Positions 3,554-40,344 of a stretch of 64,000 nt of DNA are shown piece by piece; position 1 is the first letter of the stretch; each line of letters starts with the position of its first letter. Under the pieces are notes generated by a model that saw only the letters and a program-made list of their open reading frames with translations, made no database searches and had not been told where the DNA came from. A program made the translations under genes and the position numbers. Origin of the DNA: an uncultured Acidobacteriota bacterium (GTDB lineage Bacteria > Actinomycetota > Acidimicrobiia > Spongiisociales > ZC4RG35); NCBI GenBank assembly GCA_963711895.1, contig CAVQFU010000005.1:26034-90033 (forward strand), read 5' to 3'.

Positions 3554-3564
3554 GGCCAAGAGAT

Positions 3565-3612
3565 GTTTCTCCCCCTGAAGGGGGGAGTACCGGCGGAGCC
3601 GGGGAGGGGGGA
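3565..3612 (+). repeat. copy A of a ~48-nt structured intergenic repeat (GTTTCTCCCCC-loop-GGGGGGAGTACCGGCGGAGCCGGGGAGGGGGGA)
   Basis: Starts 12 nt after the stop at 3551-3553. Near-identical copies lie at 43320-43367 and, inverted, at 49601-49649. Confidence 0.75.
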
Positions 3613-3676
3613 ATCTTTCTCACATTTCTTCTCTGATCGGCCGGTTTCTGACCCGAATTTGTCACTGCCATTTCGT

Positions 3677-4834
3677 ATGTTGGGAACATGGAACCGGAGA
3701 GGTTTTCCAACGATCAGGTGGATGAGGTTCTTGTCTCATCTGTTCTCTGGTCTGGCCGTTTTCAATGCCGAGATTTGTGAATGGTTGATCGATGCTGATC
3801 GGGGTCAGCGGTTCCTGGCCGATGGGGCACGGAATCTTCCGGAGTGGGTTTCAGCCCGTTTCGGGCTGCGACATTCGACGGCTGCTCAGTTGGTCCGAGT
3901 GGCGAGGAGACTCGAGGATCTACCGGTGTTGCGCTCCCGGTTCGCGGCCGGTGAGTTGAGTCTGGATCAGGTCGATTCGATTTCGAAGTTGGCCACTGCG
4001 GAGACGGAGGAGGCAGTGATCGACGAATGTCTCGGCCTGTCCAATGCAGCTCTGGACCGTGCCGCCAGGAGAGCGAACCCGCCGTCCACCGGTGATGAGT
4101 TGGAGGCGTGGAAGGTGAGATGGTTGTCGATCCAATACACCCTGGACGGGATCCGGGGTCACATGAATGCTGAGTTGCCCGGGATGGAAATGTCACTGGT
4201 GGAATCGGCGATCCGGGAGAGAGCGGATCGGATCCCACCCAACCCCGAATCAGGCATCTTCGACCCGTATCCACAACGGATGGCCGACGGGCTGGTCGAA
4301 CTGGCAACGACCACCGGTGATGAGAACGGTCCGGTACCAACCCAGATCACGGTCCACGCCGACCTGGAAGCCTTGACCGAGAATCCGGAGACGACGGGGG
4401 TGGCTGAAATCGAGGGTGGTCCCGTCATCGCCAATGAGACCGCCCGCCGCTTGTCCTGTGATCCGATCGTCGAATGCACGGTCTATGACCACAGGAAAGT
4501 GTTGGGGATCGGTCGTCGTTCCCGGTTGATCCCGGCCTGGTTACGTCACCAGCTCTGGTTCCGGGATGGAGGTTGTCAGTTTCCCGGATGTCCTTTCCAG
4601 GGTTGGCTCCATGCCCATCACATGACGCATTGGGCCGACGGAGGACCGACCGACCTGGACAATCTGATCCTGTTGTGTGGTTACCACCACCGGTTCCTAC
4701 ATGAACACGGATGGACGATCGAAAACGATTCCGACGGAAAACCCGTCTTCAAGAAACCCGACGGACGCATCTACCCGCCGGCCCGACCCGGTCTCGACCC
4801 CCGACTCCGAGAACTGGTCGGACAACGAACTTAG
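3677..4834 (+). CDS. DUF222 / HNH endonuclease family protein (13E12-repeat-like)
   Basis: C-terminal CQFPGCPFQGWLHAHHMTHWADGGPTDLDNLILLCGYHHRFLHEHGW HNH motif and a DUF222-like helical N-region. The track start 3563 lies inside the repeat element, so the true start is later (ATG 3677 or 3722). An ATG at 3688 in another frame would need a +1 shift. Confidence 0.8.
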   Translation: MLGTWNRRGFPTIRWMRFLSHLFSGLAVFNAEICEWLIDADRGQRFLADGARNLPEWVSARFGLRHSTAAQLVRVARRLEDLPVLRSRFAAGELSLDQVDSISKLATAETEEAVIDECLGLSNAALDRAARRANPPSTGDELEAWKVRWLSIQYTLDGIRGHMNAELPGMEMSLVESAIRERADRIPPNPESGIFDPYPQRMADGLVELATTTGDENGPVPTQITVHADLEALTENPETTGVAEIEGGPVIANETARRLSCDPIVECTVYDHRKVLGIGRRSRLIPAWLRHQLWFRDGGCQFPGCPFQGWLHAHHMTHWADGGPTDLDNLILLCGYHHRFLHEHGWTIENDSDGKPVFKKPDGRIYPPARPGLDPRLRELVGQRT

Positions 4835-4853: not shown

Positions 4854-5312
4854 CTAGGACTCCGCCCCCGGCTTCACCACAAGCACATCACACGTCGCGG
4901 TCTTGACCGCCACGTCCGCAGTCGAGCCGAGCAGCCATCGGCCCACCCTTCCCCGGCCCCTCGGACCGACCACTAGCACCGACCCGTCAGCCTCGTCGCA
5001 GTACGCGATGAGCGTCTTTCCCGGGTTGCCGTCCCGCTCGACGCGGACCACCTCCGCTTTGCTGCCTTCGAGGATGGGCTCGGCCAGCTCCCAGATCCGG
5101 GCCCTGTCGCTCTCTGCAAGCTCGCGTGTGTGGACCGTTCGATCTCCCTCGAGATGGAGGACCGCCGGGCTGACATCGAGCACGTGCACGACATGCAGCG
5201 GGACATTCCGCCATTCGGCTTCCCGGGCCGCATGTCGAAGGGCGGCGAAGCCCGGTTCGGACCCGTCGATTCCGACCACCACCGGTCCGGTTGCACCGGA
5301 CGCCGCTGTCAT
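4854..5312 (-). CDS. universal stress protein (UspA family)
   Basis: VVVGIDGSEPG...LHVVHV...LVVGPRGRGRVGRWLLGSTADVAVKTATCDVLVVK, the typical Usp ATP-binding pattern. Confidence 0.85.
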   Translation of the reverse strand: MTAASGATGPVVVGIDGSEPGFAALRHAAREAEWRNVPLHVVHVLDVSPAVLHLEGDRTVHTRELAESDRARIWELAEPILEGSKAEVVRVERDGNPGKTLIAYCDEADGSVLVVGPRGRGRVGRWLLGSTADVAVKTATCDVLVVKPGAES

Positions 5313-5335
5313 GGCCGCATCCTAGGATCCCGGAA

Positions 5336-6229
5336 ATGACGGCAATCGAGGTCAGGGGCCTGAAGAAATCCTATGGCGACGTGGTTGCCGTCGACGGAGT
5401 CGACATCTCGGTCGAGGCCGGCGAGGTGTTTGCGCTGCTCGGCCCCAATGGGGCGGGGAAGACCACCACCGTAGAGATCCTCGAGGGGCATCGCTCGGCC
5501 GATGTCGGACGCATCAGCGTCCTCGGCTTCGACCCCTCCACAGGGGGCCGCGCCTACAGGGAGCGAATCGGGATCGTGCTCCAGGAAGGCGCGGTCGAAC
5601 GGGATCTCTCCGTGCGGGAGGCGTTGTCCATATACGGCGGCATGTATCCCAGGCGGCTCGACGCCGATCATTTGATCGACTTGGTAGGTCTTACCGAGAA
5701 GGCCGACGCCAGGATCAAGACCCTTTCGGGTGGCCAGCAACGCAGACTCGAACTGGCGCTTGGGCTGGTCGGCGATCCTGACCTTCTGTTCCTGGACGAG
5801 CCCACCACCGGATTCGACCCCTCGGCCCGCAGACAGGCCTGGGGGATCCTCGAGAACCTGACTGCCCTGGGCAAGACCATCCTGCTCACAACCCACTACA
5901 TGGATGAGGCTCAGCATCTGGCCGACCGGATCGCCATCATCGACCGCGGCAAGATCGTGGCGGAGGGCACACCGGAGACGCTCGGAGGGCGTGCGGATGG
6001 GAAGAGCATGATCCGATTCGCGCTTCCTGAAGGGGTCGACCCCGAGGAACTGCCCGTCGCCGCGAGCACGGTGGACGGCGATGTGGTCGAGGTCAGCGCC
6101 GAGTCCGCCACCCGGGCTCTCCACGAGCTCACGTCCTGGGCGATCAGTAGAGGCTTGGAGTTGGAACATCTCCAGGTCACCCGGCCGTCGCTGGAGGACG
6201 TCTATCTGGAGTTGACCGATGAGCACTGA
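5336..6229 (+). CDS. ABC transporter ATP-binding protein (ABC-2/DrrA-like exporter type)
   Basis: Walker A GPNGAGKTT, signature LSGGQQRRL and Walker B LLFLDEPTTGFD. Start taken at MTAIEVRGLKKSYG. Confidence 0.9.
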   Translation: MTAIEVRGLKKSYGDVVAVDGVDISVEAGEVFALLGPNGAGKTTTVEILEGHRSADVGRISVLGFDPSTGGRAYRERIGIVLQEGAVERDLSVREALSIYGGMYPRRLDADHLIDLVGLTEKADARIKTLSGGQQRRLELALGLVGDPDLLFLDEPTTGFDPSARRQAWGILENLTALGKTILLTTHYMDEAQHLADRIAIIDRGKIVAEGTPETLGGRADGKSMIRFALPEGVDPEELPVAASTVDGDVVEVSAESATRALHELTSWAISRGLELEHLQVTRPSLEDVYLELTDEH

Positions 6230-7064
6230 AGTCTCACGAAGGCCCTCCGTCGCTTCTTTGGTCTGGCAGCAGTTTCGTTATCAGAACAAGGTGTTCTGGC
6301 GGACGCCAATTGCAGCCTTCTTCACCATCGTGTTCCCGTTGATGCTGCTCGTGCTGTTCACGGCGATCTTCGGCAACGATGAGATCGAGGGTCTCGGGAT
6401 CACCACCGCCCAGTACTTCACCCCGGGGCTCGCCGTATTCGCCGCTGTCTCGGCGACGTACACAAATCTCGCCATAGGTACTGCCATCGCCAGGGACAAC
6501 GGGATACTCAAGCGTGTCAGGGGCACGCCGATCCCGCCGTGGGCATACATCGCCGGGCGGGTGGCCTCGTCGGTCTACCTCGCCTTCCTCGCCATGGCAT
6601 TGATGATGGCCGCCGGGGTGGTCTTCTACGGAGTTCAGATCATCGCCCGCACCCTGCCGGCCGCCCTGCTCACGTTCGTCGTAGGTGTGAGCTGTTTCGC
6701 TGCCCTCGGGATGTTGGTGGCGGCGATATCGCCCAGTGGTGATGCCACCCCTGCCATCACCAATGCCACTCTCCTCCCCGTCGCCTTCATCTCGAACATC
6801 TTCTTCCCGATCGAGAACCCGCCGCGATGGATGGAGATCGCCGGCAACTTCTTCCCCCTCAAGGCTTTCGCCGAGGCCTTCCGTGATGCCTTCGACCCGA
6901 CCCTGACCGGGCTTCAGTTCCACTGGCCCCAAATCGGCTATCTCGCCCTTTGGGGCGTGGTAGCCGCCCTCCTCGCTGTCAGATTCTTCCGGTGGGAGCC
7001 ATCGTCGGGGTCGACGTCGCGACGGCGGCGTCGACGGGTCGAGGAGGTTTCGGAGGCCGTCTGA
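6219..7064 (+). CDS. ABC-2 type transporter permease
   Basis: 281 aa with six hydrophobic segments. Overlaps the ATPase gene end by 11 nt. Confidence 0.8.
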   Translation: MSTEVSRRPSVASLVWQQFRYQNKVFWRTPIAAFFTIVFPLMLLVLFTAIFGNDEIEGLGITTAQYFTPGLAVFAAVSATYTNLAIGTAIARDNGILKRVRGTPIPPWAYIAGRVASSVYLAFLAMALMMAAGVVFYGVQIIARTLPAALLTFVVGVSCFAALGMLVAAISPSGDATPAITNATLLPVAFISNIFFPIENPPRWMEIAGNFFPLKAFAEAFRDAFDPTLTGLQFHWPQIGYLALWGVVAALLAVRFFRWEPSSGSTSRRRRRRVEEVSEAV

Positions 7065-7081
7065 TCGGTAGTAGTCGCTCG

Positions 7082-7669
7082 GTGGTGACGTCGCTACGAT
7101 CCGCCGCCGTGCCCCTGCTCAGCGGTCCGTTCCTCGCCATCTCCGCATTGCTCGCCGTGGCCGGTGCAATGAAGGTCTACCGGCCGAAGTACACGGTGGG
7201 CGCCCTCACGGCCGCGGGTCTTCCCGCCAACACCACACTCGTGCGCCTGCTCGGTTTGGCCGAGATCGGAGTCGGCATAGGGGCGATCTGGACCGGAGCC
7301 TCACTTTGGGCGGTCGCCACCGGGCTCTTCTACCTCGGCTTCGCATTGTTTGTCATCTATGCGCTTCGCAGTGGCCTCCCGATCGCGAGCTGTGGGTGTT
7401 TTGGCAGTCCGGACACCCCGCCTAATGTCGGGCACGTGGTGCTCGACCTGACGGCGACCGCCGTGGCTTTAGCGGTCGCGATCGACCCCATCGGCAGTTG
7501 GGTGGGTCTGCCCGGGGTGGAACCATGGACCGGCGTGGCCTTTCTCCTATTCTCGGGGGCCACCGTCTACCTGCTCTACGCCATCGTCAACGTCCTCCCC
7601 CAGCGATCGAACCACGGTCGCGAGTCCACCGTCCGATTGTCGCCGACCAGGGACCCTGTGAGTGAGTAG
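7082..7669 (+). CDS. MauE/DoxX-family redox-associated membrane protein
   Basis: GTG at 7082, 18 nt after the permease stop. Four or five TM helices and the SCGCFGS motif characteristic of MauE-type proteins. Confidence 0.65.
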   Translation: MVTSLRSAAVPLLSGPFLAISALLAVAGAMKVYRPKYTVGALTAAGLPANTTLVRLLGLAEIGVGIGAIWTGASLWAVATGLFYLGFALFVIYALRSGLPIASCGCFGSPDTPPNVGHVVLDLTATAVALAVAIDPIGSWVGLPGVEPWTGVAFLLFSGATVYLLYAIVNVLPQRSNHGRESTVRLSPTRDPVSE

Positions 7670-7694
7670 GACTTTGGTCAGGCGGGCCACCGGG

Positions 7695-8927
7695 ATGGTG
7701 GACCGGCCAGTGAGTCGCCGCGGCTTTCTCCGTCGTCTCACCATGGGTGCAACGGCTCTGGCCGTCACGCCGCTCTTCTACATGAGTCGGCCGGTCACCG
7801 CCTACGCCGCCATCTGCTCATGCTCCGGCTCCAGCTGCGACTGCGGAAGCATGTGCTGCGACGGTTACACGGAGTTCTGCTGCAGCATCTACGGTGAGAA
7901 CACCTGCCCCTCAGGGACCATCGCGGCCGGTTGGTGGAAGGCAGACGGCTCCGGTATCTGCGACAACCAGCTCGGGCCACAGCCTCGCTACTACCTCGAC
8001 TGCAACGTTGCCACCTGCGGGTCTGGCGGCTTCACCTGTGGATGCGCCAACGGCGACTGCAACCTGCGCAAGGCGGCCTGCACCAACTTTCGTTACGGGC
8101 AGTGCCATCAGGAAATCGCCTGTGTGGGCCCGATCGTCTGCCGCGTGGTCACCTGCACCCCACCGTGGGTCTGGGACGGCTCATGCACCACGGCCTCTGC
8201 AACCGACAACAACACGCGATTTCACAATGCAGCCTGCCTCCAGCAGCCAGGTCTCGCGGCCCCTCTACCCCAGGGGGTCGCAGTCAGTGGCGACTGGACC
8301 GGGGCGGGTCGGGACATGCCGGGTGTGTTCGCCAATGGCCGGTGGCATCTGCGCCGGGCTGAGGGCGGTCCCGACATCGTGTTCGACTTTGGTGCCCCGG
8401 GGGACCGTCCGGTGGTGGGCGACTGGAACGGCGACGGAATCGACACACCCGGCCTGTTCCGGGCTGGGACGTTCTACCTGCGCAGTTCCAATACCACCGG
8501 TGTCGCCGACATCACCTTCTCCTACGGCAACCAGGGCGATTTCCCGCTTTCCGGTGACTGGACCGGGAAAGGATTCGACACGGTCGGCGTTCACCGAGGC
8601 GGCATGTGGTACCTGCGCAACTCCAACTCCACGGGGCCGGCCGACATCGCTTTCGAGTTCGGCGACCCGGGGGACAGGCCGATCATGGGAGATTGGAATG
8701 GCGACGGCATCGACACCCCGGGTCTCTACCGGCGGGACTCGTGGTACCTGCGCAACTCGAACAGCACCGGTGTGGCCAACGTCAGCTTCATATTCGGCGA
8801 CCCCGGTGACGATGCCGTGACCGGCGATTGGGACGGAACCGGGACCCAGACTCCCGGGATCGTTAGAAGCCGTCGCTTTTATCTGCGTAACTCGAATTCG
8901 TCGGGTGTTGCCGACCAGGTGGTGTGA
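7695..8927 (+). CDS. Tat-signal, Cys-rich (methylamine dehydrogenase light-chain-like) protein fused to five FG-GAP/VCBS-like repeats
   Basis: MVDRPVSRRGFLRRLTMGATALAV twin-arginine signal. By my count 22 Cys in ~150 aa, including CCSIYGENTCPSGTIAAGWWKADGSGIC...RYYLDC. Then 5 x ~45-aa GDWxGxGxDTPG...WYLRNSNSTGxAD..F.FGDPGD repeats. Confidence 0.6.
   Translation: MVDRPVSRRGFLRRLTMGATALAVTPLFYMSRPVTAYAAICSCSGSSCDCGSMCCDGYTEFCCSIYGENTCPSGTIAAGWWKADGSGICDNQLGPQPRYYLDCNVATCGSGGFTCGCANGDCNLRKAACTNFRYGQCHQEIACVGPIVCRVVTCTPPWVWDGSCTTASATDNNTRFHNAACLQQPGLAAPLPQGVAVSGDWTGAGRDMPGVFANGRWHLRRAEGGPDIVFDFGAPGDRPVVGDWNGDGIDTPGLFRAGTFYLRSSNTTGVADITFSYGNQGDFPLSGDWTGKGFDTVGVHRGGMWYLRNSNSTGPADIAFEFGDPGDRPIMGDWNGDGIDTPGLYRRDSWYLRNSNSTGVANVSFIFGDPGDDAVTGDWDGTGTQTPGIVRSRRFYLRNSNSSGVADQVV
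8283..8924 (+). repeat. in-frame tandem coding repeats, period 135 nt (first unit 129 nt), five units
   Basis: The GG(C/T/A)GA(C/T)TGG (G-D-W) anchor recurs at 8289, 8418, 8553, 8688 and 8823. Confidence 0.85.
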
Positions 8928-9628
8928 TCGTGAACGCCGTACTCGTCATCGAAGGGGTCGCCATCATCCTCCTCGCCATCCTCGTGGTGGGCCTGCTTCG
9001 CAGCAACGCCGATGTGTTGCGGGCCCTGCACGAGCTGGGCGCCACCGAGCCCGGGTCAGCCGCCCCGAGACGCAGACACCAGCAGGCCGCGCCCGAGCGT
9101 GAGGGGACCGCCCCCGACGTCGCCGGCTCGACGTTGACCGGATCTGCGGTCCATGTCGGCGTCACCGGGGCGCAACACCCGACTCTTTTGGCGTTTCTCT
9201 CGACCGGCTGCTCGGCCTGTGTCGGGTTGTGGGATGGCCTGAAGACAGGCGTCGGCAGGATCGGTTCGGACGACACAAGGATCGTGGTCGTGACCAAAGG
9301 CCCCGAGGCCGAGAGTGAGTCGAAATTGCGTGAGCTCGCCCCCGATGGTGTTTCCCTGGTCCAGTCCACCGAGGCATGGTTCGACTACGAGGTGCCCGTA
9401 TCCCCATACTTCGTGCTCGTCGACGGGCCGTCGGGCTCGGTCATAGGGGAAGGATCGGCGGGCTCCTGGGCCCAGGTGTCGTCGCTGATGACCCAGGCTC
9501 TGGCCGACGCCGGCACCGTCAAGCGGGACAGGCTCGACAACGGCGAGTTCAGAGCAGATGCGGAACTGCGCCGGGCCGGGATCCTGCCCGGTGACCCGAG
9601 CCTCCATCAGGAGGAACGGCCACAGTGA
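8924..9628 (+). CDS. membrane-anchored thioredoxin-fold protein (TlpA/MauD-like)
   Basis: N-terminal TM helix (AVLVIEGVAIILLAILVVGLL) and LLAFLSTGCSACVGLW with a CxxC motif. The start overlaps the upstream stop (GTGTGA). Confidence 0.7.
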   Translation: MIVNAVLVIEGVAIILLAILVVGLLRSNADVLRALHELGATEPGSAAPRRRHQQAAPEREGTAPDVAGSTLTGSAVHVGVTGAQHPTLLAFLSTGCSACVGLWDGLKTGVGRIGSDDTRIVVVTKGPEAESESKLRELAPDGVSLVQSTEAWFDYEVPVSPYFVLVDGPSGSVIGEGSAGSWAQVSSLMTQALADAGTVKRDRLDNGEFRADAELRRAGILPGDPSLHQEERPQ

Positions 9629-10083
9629 AGTCGGCCGGCATCGACGTGGCCGTTCCCCAAGGCTGGGACGGCGAGATCTACCGACGTGAGGACGAGCTCT
9701 CCGCTCAGTCGGCTGGAGCCGGATCCCATCCGGTGGTCCATCTCGGCACTTTCCCTCTCCCGCAGGGTCGTGGCGATTTCGGTTCGGGTGCGGTCGAGAT
9801 CATGAGCTCCGACGACCTGCTCGTGGTTCTTTTCGAGTACGGGCGTGAGTCGGCAGGAAGCGCGTTGTTCGCTCGGATGGGGATTCCCCGGGTAGCGGCC
9901 TCCGACTTCGGTCCCAACAATATGCAAAGACCCATCGCCGGCCAGTCAGGTGCCCAATACTTCTTCAACCAGTCGGGGCGCGCCTTCTGCTTGTATGTCG
10001 TGCTCGGCGCCCACGCCCGCCGCAATGAGTTGGTCCCCGAGGTGAACCAGGTCCTGGCGGGCCTGACGATCGACCCAGAATGA
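9625..10083 (+). CDS. hypothetical protein (no recognisable domain)
   Basis: 152-aa ORF coupled at both ends: GTGA overlap at 9625-9628 and ATGA overlap at 10080-10083. Confidence 0.5.
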   Translation: MKSAGIDVAVPQGWDGEIYRREDELSAQSAGAGSHPVVHLGTFPLPQGRGDFGSGAVEIMSSDDLLVVLFEYGRESAGSALFARMGIPRVAASDFGPNNMQRPIAGQSGAQYFFNQSGRAFCLYVVLGAHARRNELVPEVNQVLAGLTIDPE

Positions 10084-11112
10084 AGATGTACACAGCAGAT
10101 CCGGGCCGGTATGGCCGCATGCCCTATGCCCGATCGGGGAGGAGTGGTCTGGACCTGCCCCGGATCTCTCTGGGGCTATGGCACAACTTCGGGGGCGATT
10201 CGCTGACCGAGGAGGGTCGGCGCTTGATCCTGAACTCGTTCGACCAGGGGATCACGCACTTCGACCTGGCCAACAACTACGGGCCTCCGCCCGGATCGGC
10301 GGAGCGGAACTTCGGAGCGCTACTTGCGTCGGACCTGTTGCCCTATCGGGACGAGCTGATCATCTCCACCAAAGCGGGATACGACATGTGGGAGGGACCA
10401 TATGGCGAATGGGGCTCGCGCAAGTACATGTTGGCCAGCCTGGACCAGAGCCTGGCGCGAATGGGACTCGAATACGTCGACATCTTCTACTCCCATCGGT
10501 ACGACCCGGATACACCACTCGAGGAGACCCTGGGCTCTCTCGACAGCGCGGTCCGCGCCGGGAAGGCCCTCTATGCCGGGATCTCCTCGTATGGCCCGGA
10601 GATGACGCGGGAGGCGCACGCCATCCTCACCCGGCTCGGGACACCGTTCATCATCCACCAGCCCTCCTATTCGATGCTCAACCGATGGGTCGAGGATGGG
10701 CTCCTCGATGTGCTCGGCGAGCTCGGCATCGGCTGCATCGCGTTCTCCCCGTTGGCCCAGGGGCTCCTCACCGACAGATACCTCGAAGGTGTCCCCGCCG
10801 ACTCCCGGGTGGGCAAAGGGAGGTGCGCTGGATCCCTCGATGCTGTCCGAGGACAACCTGGCCCGGGTGCGGGCACTGAGCGGCGTCGCTCGAGATCGGG
10901 GCCAGACCCTGGCCCAGATGGCCGTGGCCTGGGTGTTGCGCGACGATCGCGTCACTTCGGCTCTGATCGGGGCCAGTCGCTGGTCTCAGGTAGAGGACCT
11001 GCTGCGGGCCGTTGAGAACACACAGTTCAGTGACGAGGAGCTGGCCGCCATCGACCGGTACGCGGTGGAGGGCGACATCAACTTGTGGGCCAGGTCCAGC
11101 GACGCCGGCTGA
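10080..11112 (+). pseudogene. aldo/keto reductase (YghZ/Gpr-like), interrupted by an apparent +1 frameshift near 10821
   Basis: ORF 10080-11015 carries the AKR N-terminal two-thirds (up to ...LTDRYLEGVPADSRVGKG). ORF 10696-11112 in the next frame carries the conserved C-terminus (GALDPSMLSEDNL...DRVTSALIGASR...INLWARSSD). Skipping one base in AAAGGGAGG joins them. Confidence 0.8.
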
Positions 11113-11122
11113 CGGCGGCGAG

Positions 11123-11548
11123 ATGAGAGACTCGGGTGTCAAGCGGTGGTCCGCGTTTCACCGCGCGCTATACGAGGCGACGAACGGCGTGCTCGGTCGG
11201 CGGTTGGTCGGGAACGACATGCTCCTCCTCACCACACGCGGGAGGGTGACCGGTGAGCCGCACACGGTCCCGCTGCTCTACCTCCGCGACGGGGACCGGC
11301 TTCTGGTGATCGCTTCGTATGGCGGGCGTGATCACCATCCCGCGTGGTATCTCAACTTGCTTGCCGATCCCTCGGTCACCGCCCGTGTCGGCGACCGGAA
11401 GATGGTGCTGACCGCCCGGACCGCCTCTTCCGCAGAACGTGATGTCTGGTGGCCGAAGGTGGTGGCGTCCTACAGCGACTACGCCGTCTATCAGACGAGG
11501 ACCGACCGGGAGATCCCGGTCGTCGCCCTCGAGCCCCGCGGCCTTTAG
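11123..11548 (+). CDS. nitroreductase-family deazaflavin (F420)-dependent oxidoreductase (Ddn-like)
   Basis: LLLTTRGRVTGEPHTVPLLYLRDGDRLLVIASYGGRDHHPAWYLNL...REIPVVALEP is the typical Ddn/PNPOx-like family pattern. Start at ATG 11123. Confidence 0.8.
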   Translation: MRDSGVKRWSAFHRALYEATNGVLGRRLVGNDMLLLTTRGRVTGEPHTVPLLYLRDGDRLLVIASYGGRDHHPAWYLNLLADPSVTARVGDRKMVLTARTASSAERDVWWPKVVASYSDYAVYQTRTDREIPVVALEPRGL

Positions 11549-38387: not shown

Positions 38388-38717
38388 TCAGCCGCCCTCC
38401 AGATAGCCGCGAAGTATCTCCACTTCCTGCTGGAAGCCTTCCGCCTTCTCAGCCTGGCCGATGCGTCGGTACTCGGCCACGTATCCCTCGAATTCCTCGA
38501 TCTCGCGGGAGATGATCCCGGAGACATCCTCGTCGCTCAACGAACGGCGCGCGACGTCGCCGTAGCCGGCGATGCCCTCCACGGATGCGACGCCCTCGAC
38601 TGCCTCGGCGTTTTGGATGGCCGAGAGGGTGGTGCGGAGGACCTTCACCCGCGTCAGGTCCCGATCTTTCATGGCCTGGTTCAGGTCGTCCCGGACCCGG
38701 GTGTGGAGGGAGGTCAC
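38388..38717 (-). CDS. GatB/YqeY-domain protein (short)
   Basis: The GTG start at 38717 overlaps the upstream stop (GTGA). LNQAMKDRDLTRVKVLRTTLSAIQNAE resembles the YqeY N-domain. Confidence 0.65.
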   Translation of the reverse strand: MTSLHTRVRDDLNQAMKDRDLTRVKVLRTTLSAIQNAEAVEGVASVEGIAGYGDVARRSLSDEDVSGIISREIEEFEGYVAEYRRIGQAEKAEGFQQEVEILRGYLEGG

Positions 38718-39135
38718 GCTTCGACCACCAGCGAGCCGGTCATGGACGGGTGGATGGTGCAGAAGTAGGTCCAGGTGCCGGGCTCCAAGGAGAGCTCGCC
38801 CTCCTGGTCGTTGCCCAGCCGCACCGGCTCGACGTCGGCCGGGGCACCGTCGACGGTCTCCATCTGGACCTCGTGGGGGGCGCTCGAGTCGTTGACCCAT
38901 GTCACCGACTTGCCCGATGGCACCGTCACCTCGGCAGGGAAGGAGAGCCCGGTCACCATGATGACGACTGAGGTCTCGGTCTCGGTCACTGCATCGTCGG
39001 CGGGACGTCGTGTCCGTGAGCATCTCTTCGGTGACGGCGGTCGTGGCGGTCGACCCGCTGTCACCTCCGCAAGCCTCCGATCAGTCCGAGCACCATGAAG
39101 GCACCAGCGGCTCGGATCGACAGCCGGCGTCTCAT
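38714..39135 (-). pseudogene. cupredoxin (amicyanin-type C-x2-H-x2-M copper loop) lipoprotein; reconstruction needs two +1 shifts (~39075 and ~39002)
   Basis: Frame A from ATG 39135 gives the signal peptide MRRRLSIRAAGAFMVLGLIG. Frame B gives ACGGDSGSTATTAVTEEMLTDTTS (lipobox Cys). Frame C gives ADDAVTETETSVVIMVTGLSFPAEVTVPSGKSVTWVNDSSAPHEV...YFCTIHPSMTGSLVVEA. Confidence 0.5.
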
Positions 39136-39168
39136 CGCCCATCACCCTAGGCAGGGTGGCGAGCGAAG

Positions 39169-40344
39169 TCAGCGAGCCGAGAGCTCGCGGTCCAAAGGAG
39201 AAGCAAAACGGGCGATGACTCTCTTGTCGCTGAGCCAGGTCTCGACATCTTCCGCCTGACGCTCGACCTCGGCGAGGTTCTCGTGGCTGATGTCCTCCAG
39301 CAACTCCCACACCACCTCACCGGACGCCCGTTGCCCCCAGGCACCGACGATCCTCCCATCCACCCAAATCGTCTGCCCGGCGTTCCCGTTGCTGTCGAAC
39401 AGCCTCGGGGCGTGAGGTCCCAGGTACCACTCCCGCTCCTTCCATCCCATCGTGGTGGGATCGAGCGAGGGGAGCAGGGCAACCCACGGGTCGACTTGTG
39501 GCACCGGGTCCACGTCGTCAGGAAGCACATAGCCGGTGCCGGACTCCAATTCGACCTCGACCGCCCTGATGGTGACCAACGCCGCCCTCACCTGGGTGAC
39601 CGGCCAACCGGTCCACCATTTCATGTCGAACTCGGTCCCCGGGCCAAATGCAGCCAGCCATCTGCGGAGGACTGCGGCCTGGGCGTCAGGCTTCGACATC
39701 TCCGGCATCGGCTTTCCCACCCAATCGTCCATGGGAGCCCAGCGGTACATGCTGCTCACCCATGTCCCTTTGGGTCGTCCCCGTATCACTTTCCCCTCGG
39801 TGGCGAGCAGGAAGAGGATCCGGGTCGACATCCCCACCGTGGTGAGGACCGAACCGTCCTTCTTGTAGAAGGTGATCTTCTCGCCCAGCTCGGGTACGTC
39901 CTTGGTCAGTTCGCCGGCCACCGCCTCGCCCCTCTTCCGTAGTGCAGCGAGCGTCTTGTCGGCGACGGCATCGATCCACATTCGGCCATCCTCGGCGATG
40001 CCGTAGCTCTCCACCCATCCCGCCAGCCGTCTCCGCTCGGGGGCCACGAGCGCCACGGTCGAGGAGTGATGCAGCATCGGGGCCATCTCGACCGGGACCA
40101 CGAACATCGTGCGCCGCATGGCAAGGATCCGAACAAGAGACTTCTTCTCGTACAGGGCGGCCTCGAGGTCGCCTTGTTTGAACCCGGACACACGGGCCCG
40201 GGCAGACAGGTAGACCGTGGCGGGATCAGATGAGTGGAGACCGATCATCGCATCGGCAGCTTCGACGACATTCCCGGCCGGGGATGCGAGCCGATGCCTG
40301 GTCGCCAGGCGTGCTCGTCGTTCGTCATTGGAAACGGTGCGCAC
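39169..40344 (-). CDS. winged-helix DNA-binding domain protein (YcaQ/DUF1006-like)
   Basis: RRARLATRHRL...AADAMIGLHSSDPATVYLSARARV...SLVRILAMRRTMFVV is the typical YcaQ-family N-terminus. Start taken at GTG 40344, just after the upstream stop at 40350. Confidence 0.7.
   Translation of the reverse strand: MRTVSNDERRARLATRHRLASPAGNVVEAADAMIGLHSSDPATVYLSARARVSGFKQGDLEAALYEKKSLVRILAMRRTMFVVPVEMAPMLHHSSTVALVAPERRRLAGWVESYGIAEDGRMWIDAVADKTLAALRKRGEAVAGELTKDVPELGEKITFYKKDGSVLTTVGMSTRILFLLATEGKVIRGRPKGTWVSSMYRWAPMDDWVGKPMPEMSKPDAQAAVLRRWLAAFGPGTEFDMKWWTGWPVTQVRAALVTIRAVEVELESGTGYVLPDDVDPVPQVDPWVALLPSLDPTTMGWKEREWYLGPHAPRLFDSNGNAGQTIWVDGRIVGAWGQRASGEVVWELLEDISHENLAEVERQAEDVETWLSDKRVIARFASPLDRELSAR

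Follow-up and report, generated by a model that had tools for sequence, protein, structure and literature searches.

What would a set of mau-like genes be doing at a locus where the rest of the methylamine dehydrogenase (MADH) gene cluster is missing? The question is raised by four consecutive genes, here g1 to g4, in a 64,000 nt stretch of contig CAVQFU010000005.1 (GenBank assembly GCA_963711895.1, positions 26,034 to 90,033 of the forward strand; hereafter the window), from an uncultured bacterium deposited as Acidobacteriota and placed by GTDB in the Acidimicrobiia. A preliminary description of the sequence had read them as an orphan mau-like module, made up of a MauE-like membrane protein, an exported cysteine-rich protein resembling MauA (the MADH light chain, which carries the tryptophan tryptophylquinone cofactor, TTQ), a MauD-like thioredoxin and a fourth gene of unknown function. 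Our current reading, which we regard as probable although well short of certain, is that g1–g4 constitute an operon dedicated to the oxidative folding of a single client, and that the cysteine-rich head of that client, g2, would be a new disulfide-knotted surface domain.

Gene order and homologues of the mau maturation factors

All four plus-strand open reading frames (ORFs) appear in the ORF listing of the window, the G+C content of which is 61–67%, and the start/stop overlaps claimed for them are present when read from the letters: GTGAGTAG at 7662–7669 between g1 and g2, GTGA at 8924–8927 (g2/g3) and at 9625–9628 (g3/g4), and ATGA at 10080–10083, where the end of g4 overlaps a downstream ORF (Table 1). 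When 84 related loci (L001–L084; 85 with the window) were searched by tblastn, g1, g3 and g4 turned up next to g2, ordered g1-g2-g3-g4, at every locus with sufficient flanking sequence except three that hold a solo g2 paralogue (see below); the cassette order is kept in about 70 of the 84, and g4 lies downstream of g3 in 71 of the 85. The arrangement is beyond chance, because the same order recurs in dozens of independent genomes, and the co-occurrence that the preliminary description had proposed to examine is thus strong. The g2 head by itself retrieves 341 close homologues, the named ones being Acidimicrobiia or Acidimicrobiales proteins from metagenome-assembled genomes, while an exhaustive profile search gives 619 clusters at 50% identity with E≤1e-3 (290 of them with E≤1e-30). 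Counting one genome per species, more than 566 loci carry the cysteine-rich gene, nearly all of them in Acidimicrobiia. Locus L005 (CAWENM010000014.1) is 95% identical to the window; together with L015, L053 and L069 it lies on a contig labelled Acidobacteriota, Gemmatimonadaceae or Verrucomicrobiales, yet the cassettes are of the Acidimicrobiia type, and these labels are probably binning or labelling errors and not a sign of wider distribution.

The g1 product is recognized by the Pfam MauE family PF07291 (E=1.9e-13; 51.3 bits, gathering cut-off 27), and its family profile aligns with seven canonical MauE proteins, CGC on CGC (hhalign 97.7%, E=1.4e-12). The motif that had first drawn attention to it, S-C-G-C-F-G, occupies residues 103–108, in the loop before the last helix. 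In a recent preprint (Gonzalez et al., bioRxiv 10.64898/2026.03.05.709764), MauE proteins from two phyla were shown to substitute for DsbB in E. coli, the CXC loop and the conserved F-G that follows it were identified as the active site by mutagenesis in two MauE proteins, and quinone binding was predicted. The same study found about 8% of MauE proteins fused to thioredoxin-family domains, expected a thioredoxin-family partner for MauE, and proposed MauE as a generalist DsbB-like oxidase whose prevalence is second only to DsbB. The residues it stressed are seen in g1 as a lysine in transmembrane segment 1 (AGAMK) and a glutamate in segment 2 (LGLAE). By analogy with these proteins, we propose that g1 may be a DsbB-like, disulfide-generating oxidase. 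The sole family match of g3 is to MauD (TIGR02661, E=3.4e-10), and the g3 family profile aligns with seven MauD sequences over 177 columns that include the transmembrane segment and the CxxC (hhalign 98.3%, E=2e-14). A single hydrophobic segment (residues 1–33) and the CSAC motif agree with the membrane-anchored thioredoxin fold described earlier. As judged by these alignments g3 is a MauD homologue, not an equivalog, and is proposed, again by analogy, as a DsbA-like partner of g1.

The assignment of the module as mau-like gains further support from the relatives. At 53 of the 85 loci (52 of the 71 with g4, 73%) a gene for a polytopic membrane protein of about 195 aa intervenes between g3 and g4, and g4, the fourth cassette gene in the window, is the fifth in most relatives. 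The profile of this extra protein matches MauF over 171 columns (hhalign 99.0%, E=4e-18), Paracoccus MauF alone matches 39 loci by tblastn (best E=1e-14), and on the strength of these alignments the Acidimicrobiia protein is a MauF homologue. Examples lie at L010:7834-8418, L012:8998-9573 and L045:8961-9455, and the conserved stretch reads MLSSIxPLGER…HRQVNEDWLxxYRGWVYGxGFGxQLG. At many loci the tblastn match to MauF begins before the first ATG and includes 'STWSPCG', so that the start codon or the N-terminal helix is ambiguous; a match of the protein to the DsbD_2 transmembrane family is sub-threshold (E=7e-5). In the window itself tblastn with MauF found nothing at E≤1, and the MauF-like proteins of relatives used as queries gave chance-level matches (E 1e-4 and 4e-3). 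Presence of the MauF-like gene has no clear link with the cysteine count of the client. Clustering of all ORFs from the 85 loci revealed no further conserved neighbour, and no sigma factor, ABC transporter, cytochrome or radical SAM gene is common to more than 17 of the 85.

Biogenesis of the MADH light chain needs MauE, MauD and MauF. Homologues of all three of these membrane-associated maturation factors are present in the cassette as a family, and two of them in the window, and the cassette is without the catalytic, TTQ-forming and electron-transfer mau genes. The reference for this comparison was the mau cluster of Paracoccus denitrificans PD1222 (mauR, mauF-B-E-D-A, amicyanin, mauJ-G-M-N) plus eight other amine dehydrogenase loci; tblastn with P. 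denitrificans MauB, MauG, MauJ, MauM and MauN gave no match at E≤0.5 in the 64 kb window, nor at E≤1e-3 in the 84 related loci, the search being confined to these loci. As had been noted, the locus has neither the heavy chain nor MauG, and no amicyanin gene adjoins it. To call the module an orphan is right in so far as its mau partners are absent, but the condition is unremarkable, as only about 10% of MauE-bearing species have MauA (10.64898/2026.03.05.709764).

That figure, and the generalist role proposed for MauE, would also suit a different explanation, namely that g1 and g3 (with the MauF-like protein elsewhere) are the general disulfide system of Acidimicrobiia, a counterpart of DsbB/DsbA or VKOR, and that g2 is merely its most demanding or most abundant client, encoded alongside in an operon that is not self-contained. 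Solo g2 paralogues at L034, L054 and L070 (about 6866–8227 in each), which have no adjacent MauE, MauD-like gene or g4, point the same way. We nevertheless consider such a housekeeping role unlikely: g2 lies between g1 and g3, with overlapping ends, and is kept there even though g2 heads are only 43–60% identical across lineages. Gene order kept in this way is typical of a dedicated unit of client and factors, and the canonical mau cluster has the same dedicated E-D-A adjacency.

Table 1. Coordinates of g1–g4 and of their main features in the window
Feature	Position	Strand	Description
g1, MauE-family membrane protein	7082–7669	+	195 aa; GTG start at 7082; about four hydrophobic segments
g1 C-G-C motif (MauE active-site signature)	7391–7399	+	residues 104–106, then F-G
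g2, Tat-signal protein (leader, Cys-rich head, repeat tail)	7662–8927	+	421 aa ORF
g2 twin-arginine leader	7662–7808	+	residues 1–49; long n-region
g2 Cys-rich head	7809–8246	+	residues 50–195 (146 residues)
g2 invariant G-W-W	7929–7937	+	residues 90–92
g2 C-terminal tail	8274–8924	+	about residues 205–421; five repeats of about 45 aa (GDW…YLRNSN), FG-GAP-like
g3, MauD-like thioredoxin-fold protein	8924–9628	+	234 aa; one N-terminal membrane anchor
g3 C-S-A-C redox motif	9209–9220	+	residues 96–99; aligned to MauD CPVC
g4, conserved soluble protein	9625–10083	+	152 aa; no signal peptide, no transmembrane segment

The cysteine-rich client and the MADH light chain

The leader of g2, which is conserved across the family, carries S-R-R-G-F-L at residues 18–23 and A-Y-A at residues 47–49, with a predicted cleavage site before A50, and scores 22.7 bits against the twin-arginine translocation (Tat) signal model TIGR01409 (cut-off 16.7); g2 is accordingly predicted to be exported via Tat. 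The protein contains exactly 22 cysteines, all within residues 52–192 (141 aa), and both the twin-arginine signal and the cysteine number first reported for it are thus correct. Invariant motifs of the head are CCDGYTEFCC, CPxGT, GWW, RYYxDCN, FRYGQC and CRVVTC. The conservation of the paired tryptophans, on which the preliminary description had made its reading depend, is complete: each of the 120 homologues listed has GWW, and the motif does not vary among 143 cluster representatives. Other non-cysteine residues of the head that are invariant or nearly so in hundreds of sequences are D67, G68, Y69, T70, E71, F72, G78, N80, P83, G90, W91, W92, R109, Y110/111, D113, N115, R136, F143, R144, Y145, G146, Q147, R161, P168, D182, T185 and H188, a pattern which suggests that D67, E71, W91, W92, R109, Y110/111, D113, R144, Y145 and H188 may form a ligand-binding or catalytic site.

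Of 261 family members, 251 have an even number of cysteines in their heads, with a range of 16–30 (mostly 22, 24 or 26), and insertions in the head bring cysteines in pairs. From this parity we infer that the head is an all-disulfide domain, with 11 bonds predicted for g2 and no odd cysteine left for a Cys-Trp link. The preliminary description had envisaged a cross-linked exoprotein, held together either by a quinocofactor or by dense disulfides; the even cysteine counts favour the latter, and the former is disfavoured. An AlphaFold2 model of the head has a mean predicted local distance difference test score (pLDDT) of 89.8 and a predicted template modelling score of 0.83. Foldseek found no neighbour for it in the PDB (best E=2), the method being insensitive for small disulfide-rich folds; Pfam and NCBIfam contain no known family that matches the head, and phmmer and profile searches with g2 against PDB sequences gave no match at E≤10.

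The repeats of the g2 tail begin at residues 210, 253, 298, 343 and 388. Repeats of the FG-GAP/VCBS kind had been suspected here, and five are indeed present, but the FG-GAP_3 match of g2 is weak (E=0.76), that family being significant in five homologues. Among 92 long homologues the tail domains found were LGFP (27), CW_binding_2 (6), FG-GAP_3 (5), SLH (4) and DUF4214 (3), plus ricin and tectonin. We propose that the g2 tail would serve as a surface or glycan anchor, and, because the modules that replace one another in the tail anchor to the wall or bind glycans, display of the head on the cell envelope is most likely. Three of the 92 long family members are also matched by Pfam MauE (P0142, P0178 and P0251 were noted among the representatives), and in a few listed cluster representatives the cysteine-rich head begins only near residue 181–198, which suggests either fusions of MauE to its client or merged gene calls.

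A quite different use of the 22 cysteines would be as cytoplasmic ligands of Fe-S, Zn or Cu, in which case g2 would be exported by Tat in the folded state and the role of g1 and g3 would be reductive or protective. A Tat signal is typical of cofactor-containing cargo, and a reductase role for MauE had been suggested in earlier work cited by Gonzalez et al. (10.64898/2026.03.05.709764); the complementation of a dsbB deletion by MauE reported in that preprint indicates instead an oxidative role. No ferredoxin or other metal-binding family was detected in the Pfam and NCBIfam scans, the tails consist of extracellular modules for binding to wall or glycan, and cysteine numbers that are even and change in steps of two fit gained and lost disulfides better than fixed metal sites. 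We regard metal binding as extremely unlikely.

More searching is the question of whether g2 is, as first claimed, MauA-like and equipped with a TTQ-type tryptophan. The light-chain family PF02975, present in all 120 genuine MauA relatives retrieved, has no match in g2 at E≤1 and none among the 92 long homologues at E≤1e-3, and Foldseek returned no light-chain match for the g2 head although many light chains of MADH and of aromatic amine dehydrogenase (AADH) are in the PDB. Both of the comparisons by which the preliminary description had meant to support the claim, the hmmscan for PF02975 and the Foldseek comparison with the MADH beta subunit, hence go against it. Profile alignment of the mature domain gave an hhalign probability of 4% against 8 MauA sequences, 2.6% against 128 (16 columns) and 11.7% against two MauA-like proteins of Thermomicrobium; against one MauA there was only an 11-column NxCPPGT match, which we do not accept as a link. 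Full-length profiles of g2 and MauA align at 93–97%, and the leader alone at 94%, so that the full-length value is leader-driven, reflects mostly a generic Tat signal plus a long n-region, and was rejected as proof of homology. A long twin-arginine leader is a feature of MauA shared by g2, but one that is only partly specific: the segment before the RR scores 9.1 by itself, and hand-entered generic Tat leaders used as controls score 11–23.5 compared with 13–35 for MauA leaders.

What remains of the resemblance is a short core. The alignments pair GxNxCPPGT…G-WW…RYYxDC of g2 with GSxTSCPPGT…W…YxxxYxDCC of MauA, co-linearly, and set the invariant W92 on beta-Trp57 of the MADH light chain, in alignments whose mature-domain probability is only 2.6–11.7%. 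The core scores 21.2 against canonical MauA, where the column-shuffled null is 13.0±2.8 and 5 of 300 shuffles reach 21.2, and 23.7 against two divergent MauA-like proteins of Thermomicrobium roseum, a score reached by none of 300 shuffles. The second TTQ tryptophan, beta-Trp108, is invariant in 8 MauA sequences ('N-D-I-x-W-C'), whereas at the equivalent position, ahead of C154, g2 has a residue that varies ('QEIAC' in g2, 'q.....' in the consensus of the family). Of the two tryptophans, the first thus has a possible counterpart in g2, within the CPxGT…W…Y-x-DC core cited in the preliminary description, and the second has none. The T. roseum proteins read CPSGTQEGGAWWAC…VRYLDCC and are encoded on a plasmid of strain DSM 5159 (NC_011961.1, L088) at 717–1169 and about 5860–6310; both keep both TTQ tryptophans, and one of the genes is unannotated. 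Encoded next to them are a MauE fusion protein of 596 aa, a sigma factor and several hypothetical proteins, whereas neither MauB nor MauG is annotated there. L088 is another non-canonical mau-like locus, and offers the closest link in sequence to the core of g2.

Could g2 nevertheless be a diverged relative of the MADH light chain in which W91/W92, possibly with Y145 or a cysteine, is made into a quinone or cross-link without MauG, giving a redox enzyme that works by itself at the cell surface? The co-linear core with W92 on beta-Trp57, its performance against shuffles, the long MauA-like leader, the three light-chain maturation homologues in the cassette and the invariance of GWW, FRYG and several acidic residues in hundreds of sequences would all be consistent with this. 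They are opposed by the failure of g2 and its 92 homologues to match PF02975, the lack of a structural match to MADH or AADH light chains in the PDB, the low mature-domain probabilities, the variable beta-Trp108 position, the absence of a MauG, MauB, flavoprotein or radical SAM partner from the window and the 84 related loci, and the even cysteine parity, which leaves no unpaired cysteine for a link of the cysteine tryptophylquinone type. We judge this explanation very unlikely, and hold it highly doubtful that the GWW/FRYG site gives rise to a new protein-derived redox cofactor, such as a Trp-derived quinone, without MauG. If true, g2 would be a quinoprotein standing on its own at the cell surface and an extant relative of the protein from which the MADH light chain descended, and could expose the first oxygenation step of TTQ biogenesis. 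On balance g2 is not a member of the light-chain family and its head is most probably without TTQ; a distant ancestry shared by the head and the MADH/AADH light chains is plausible, the chances being roughly even when the MauE, MauD and MauF context is counted.

Proposed mechanism and surroundings of the cassette

Under the dedicated-operon reading, g2 would be made with its 49-residue twin-arginine leader and then exported. Outside the membrane, g1 would form disulfides at its CGC loop, its electrons presumably passing to membrane quinone, and would re-oxidize the CSAC of membrane-anchored g3, which in turn would put about 11 disulfides into the 146-residue head. In most related genomes the MauF homologue would join in; the lineage of the window would manage without MauF at the locus. 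The finished head would be a compact domain knotted by disulfides, for which no counterpart was detected among known folds, held at the surface by a variable C-terminal wall or glycan module, here the five FG-GAP-like repeats. What the sequences show are the homologies of g1, g3 and the MauF-like gene, the Tat signal, the conserved gene order and co-occurrence, the cysteine parity and the variable tails; the electron path, the outward topology of g3, the all-disulfide state, the retention at the surface and the role of g4 are inferred.

In the same scheme g4, soluble and without an export signal, might chaperone the leader or the unfolded client before export. In line with the preliminary description, which gave it no identity, g4 has no family match in Pfam or NCBIfam, and none of its 763 homologues has a Pfam domain. 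The AlphaFold2 model (pLDDT 90.9) has its best Foldseek match, a weak one, in MucB/RseB (E=8.5e-3, TM-score 0.36–0.38), with other weak matches to EagT6, MTC28, CyanoP/PsbP, LpqN and PA94 (TM-score ≤0.38, high root-mean-square deviation), and the modelled fold may be PsbP/Mog1/DUF1795-like. A relationship of g4 to MauJ or MauF was considered and rejected, as hhalign found nothing (MauJ 0.1%).

Several points weigh against this scheme. The MauF-like gene, kept by 73% of relatives, is absent from the window; g3, at 39.7 bits, falls far under the TIGR02661 equivalog cut-off of 188.6, and its outward topology is assigned by homology only; and the disulfides, export and surface location of g2 are predictions. 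The fold similarity of g4 is weak (TM-score ≤0.38), and its role as a pre-export chaperone is a guess. The solo g2 paralogues mean that the accessory machinery is shared, or not strictly required, and some genomes probably carry extra clients served in trans. The cargo of Tat, moreover, is normally folded already or loaded with a cofactor, and folding after export would be at odds with this; MauA, whose leaders also carry RR motifs, is however a precedent.

The genes around the cassette appear to contribute little. An ABC-2 type transporter (5291–7064, plus strand; ATPase 5291–6229, permease 6219–7064) stops 17 nt short of g1, with which it may share a transcript, but a similar ATPase is found upstream of the cassette in 13 of the 85 loci only. 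Downstream, an aldo/keto reductase gene (10080–11112, plus strand) overlaps the g4 stop codon through the ATGA at 10080 and is split over two frames, ORF 10080–11015 covering Pfam positions 1–208 and ORF 10696–11112 positions 218–288; it is frameshifted near 10700, as a pseudogene or through an assembly error. In spite of its overlap it was rejected as a member of the module, as it is not kept beside the cassette at other loci. Because no further neighbour is common to more than 17 of the 85 loci, both it and the transporter, a lineage-specific neighbour, are placed outside the module. A scan for promoters and terminators was uninformative, with no promoter-like sites and with terminator-like sites at chance level. 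Also in the window are a DUF222/HNH endonuclease gene (3563–4834, plus strand) upstream of the cassette, of a type often mobile in actinobacteria, and a gene for an F420H2-dependent quinone reductase (11012–11548, plus strand; Pfam E=9e-42) downstream of it. A small blue-copper protein (38714–39310, minus strand; Cupredoxin_1 E=5.5e-8, Copper-bind E=1e-6) is matched by Paracoccus amicyanin (tblastn E=1.7e-9); its gene is 29 kb away from the cassette, and there is no evidence linking the two.

Comparison with known systems

Among known systems the mau cluster of methylotrophs (mauFBEDACJGMN) comes closest. In both, a cysteine-rich protein with a long twin-arginine leader is encoded beside MauE and MauD homologues, with MauF in most relatives of the window, and g2 and MauA have the short CPPGT…W…Y-x-D-C core in common. 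The cassette differs in having no MauB, MauG, MauJ, MauM, MauN or adjacent amicyanin, in its order, E-client-D-(F)-g4 as against F-B-E-D-A in mau and B-E-D-A in AADH clusters, and in g4, which has no mau counterpart. The client differs too, with 22 cysteines compared with 12 in MauA, a C-terminal wall or glycan tail, no PF02975 match and no second TTQ tryptophan.

It is this combination of likeness and difference that makes the cassette of interest. It contains a natural and very demanding non-MADH client for MauE, MauD and MauF (11 disulfides predicted in 146 residues), in another phylum and with the amine dehydrogenase genes absent, and supports the view that these three proteins are a disulfide-maturation set rather than factors specific for TTQ; as a system it would also allow clean tests of E, D and F. 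Fusion to cell-wall or lectin modules makes the client a candidate for a major component of the cell surface in a lineage that is common in soil and water yet poorly represented in culture, and its weak local resemblance to MauA hints at the origin of the MADH light chain.

With the generalist MauE (10.64898/2026.03.05.709764), g1 shares the four-helix architecture, the CXC-F-G loop, the conserved lysine and glutamate and a thioredoxin-family partner encoded beside it. The preprint describes stand-alone housekeeping MauE proteins of Calditrichota and Thermodesulfobacteriota, whereas g1 is translationally coupled to a client plus MauD-like, MauF-like and g4 genes in a host from Acidimicrobiia. 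The DsbB-DsbA and VKOR-thioredoxin systems resemble our proposal in leading from a quinone-linked oxidase through a thioredoxin-fold carrier to exported substrates, but belong to unrelated families, and they are housekeeping systems not operonic with one client. Nearer in setting are the Streptomyces clusters in which orphan mauE/mauD genes lie beside cysteine-rich precursor peptides (decRiPPter, PMC7794033): there, too, an actinobacterial MauE, with or without MauD, is found beside a product with many cysteines and the rest of mau is absent. The Streptomyces products are short candidate precursors of peptides that are made by the ribosome and modified after translation (RiPPs), with at least 8 cysteines, whereas g2 is a 421-aa, multidomain protein with a Tat signal and a conserved 146-residue fold, accompanied by a MauF homologue and g4. 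The 'orphan MauE/MauD' is thus already known, from Streptomyces mining and from the generalist MauE preprint; what appears to be undescribed is the Acidimicrobiia-wide cassette, its client domain, a MauF homologue with a non-MADH client, and g4.

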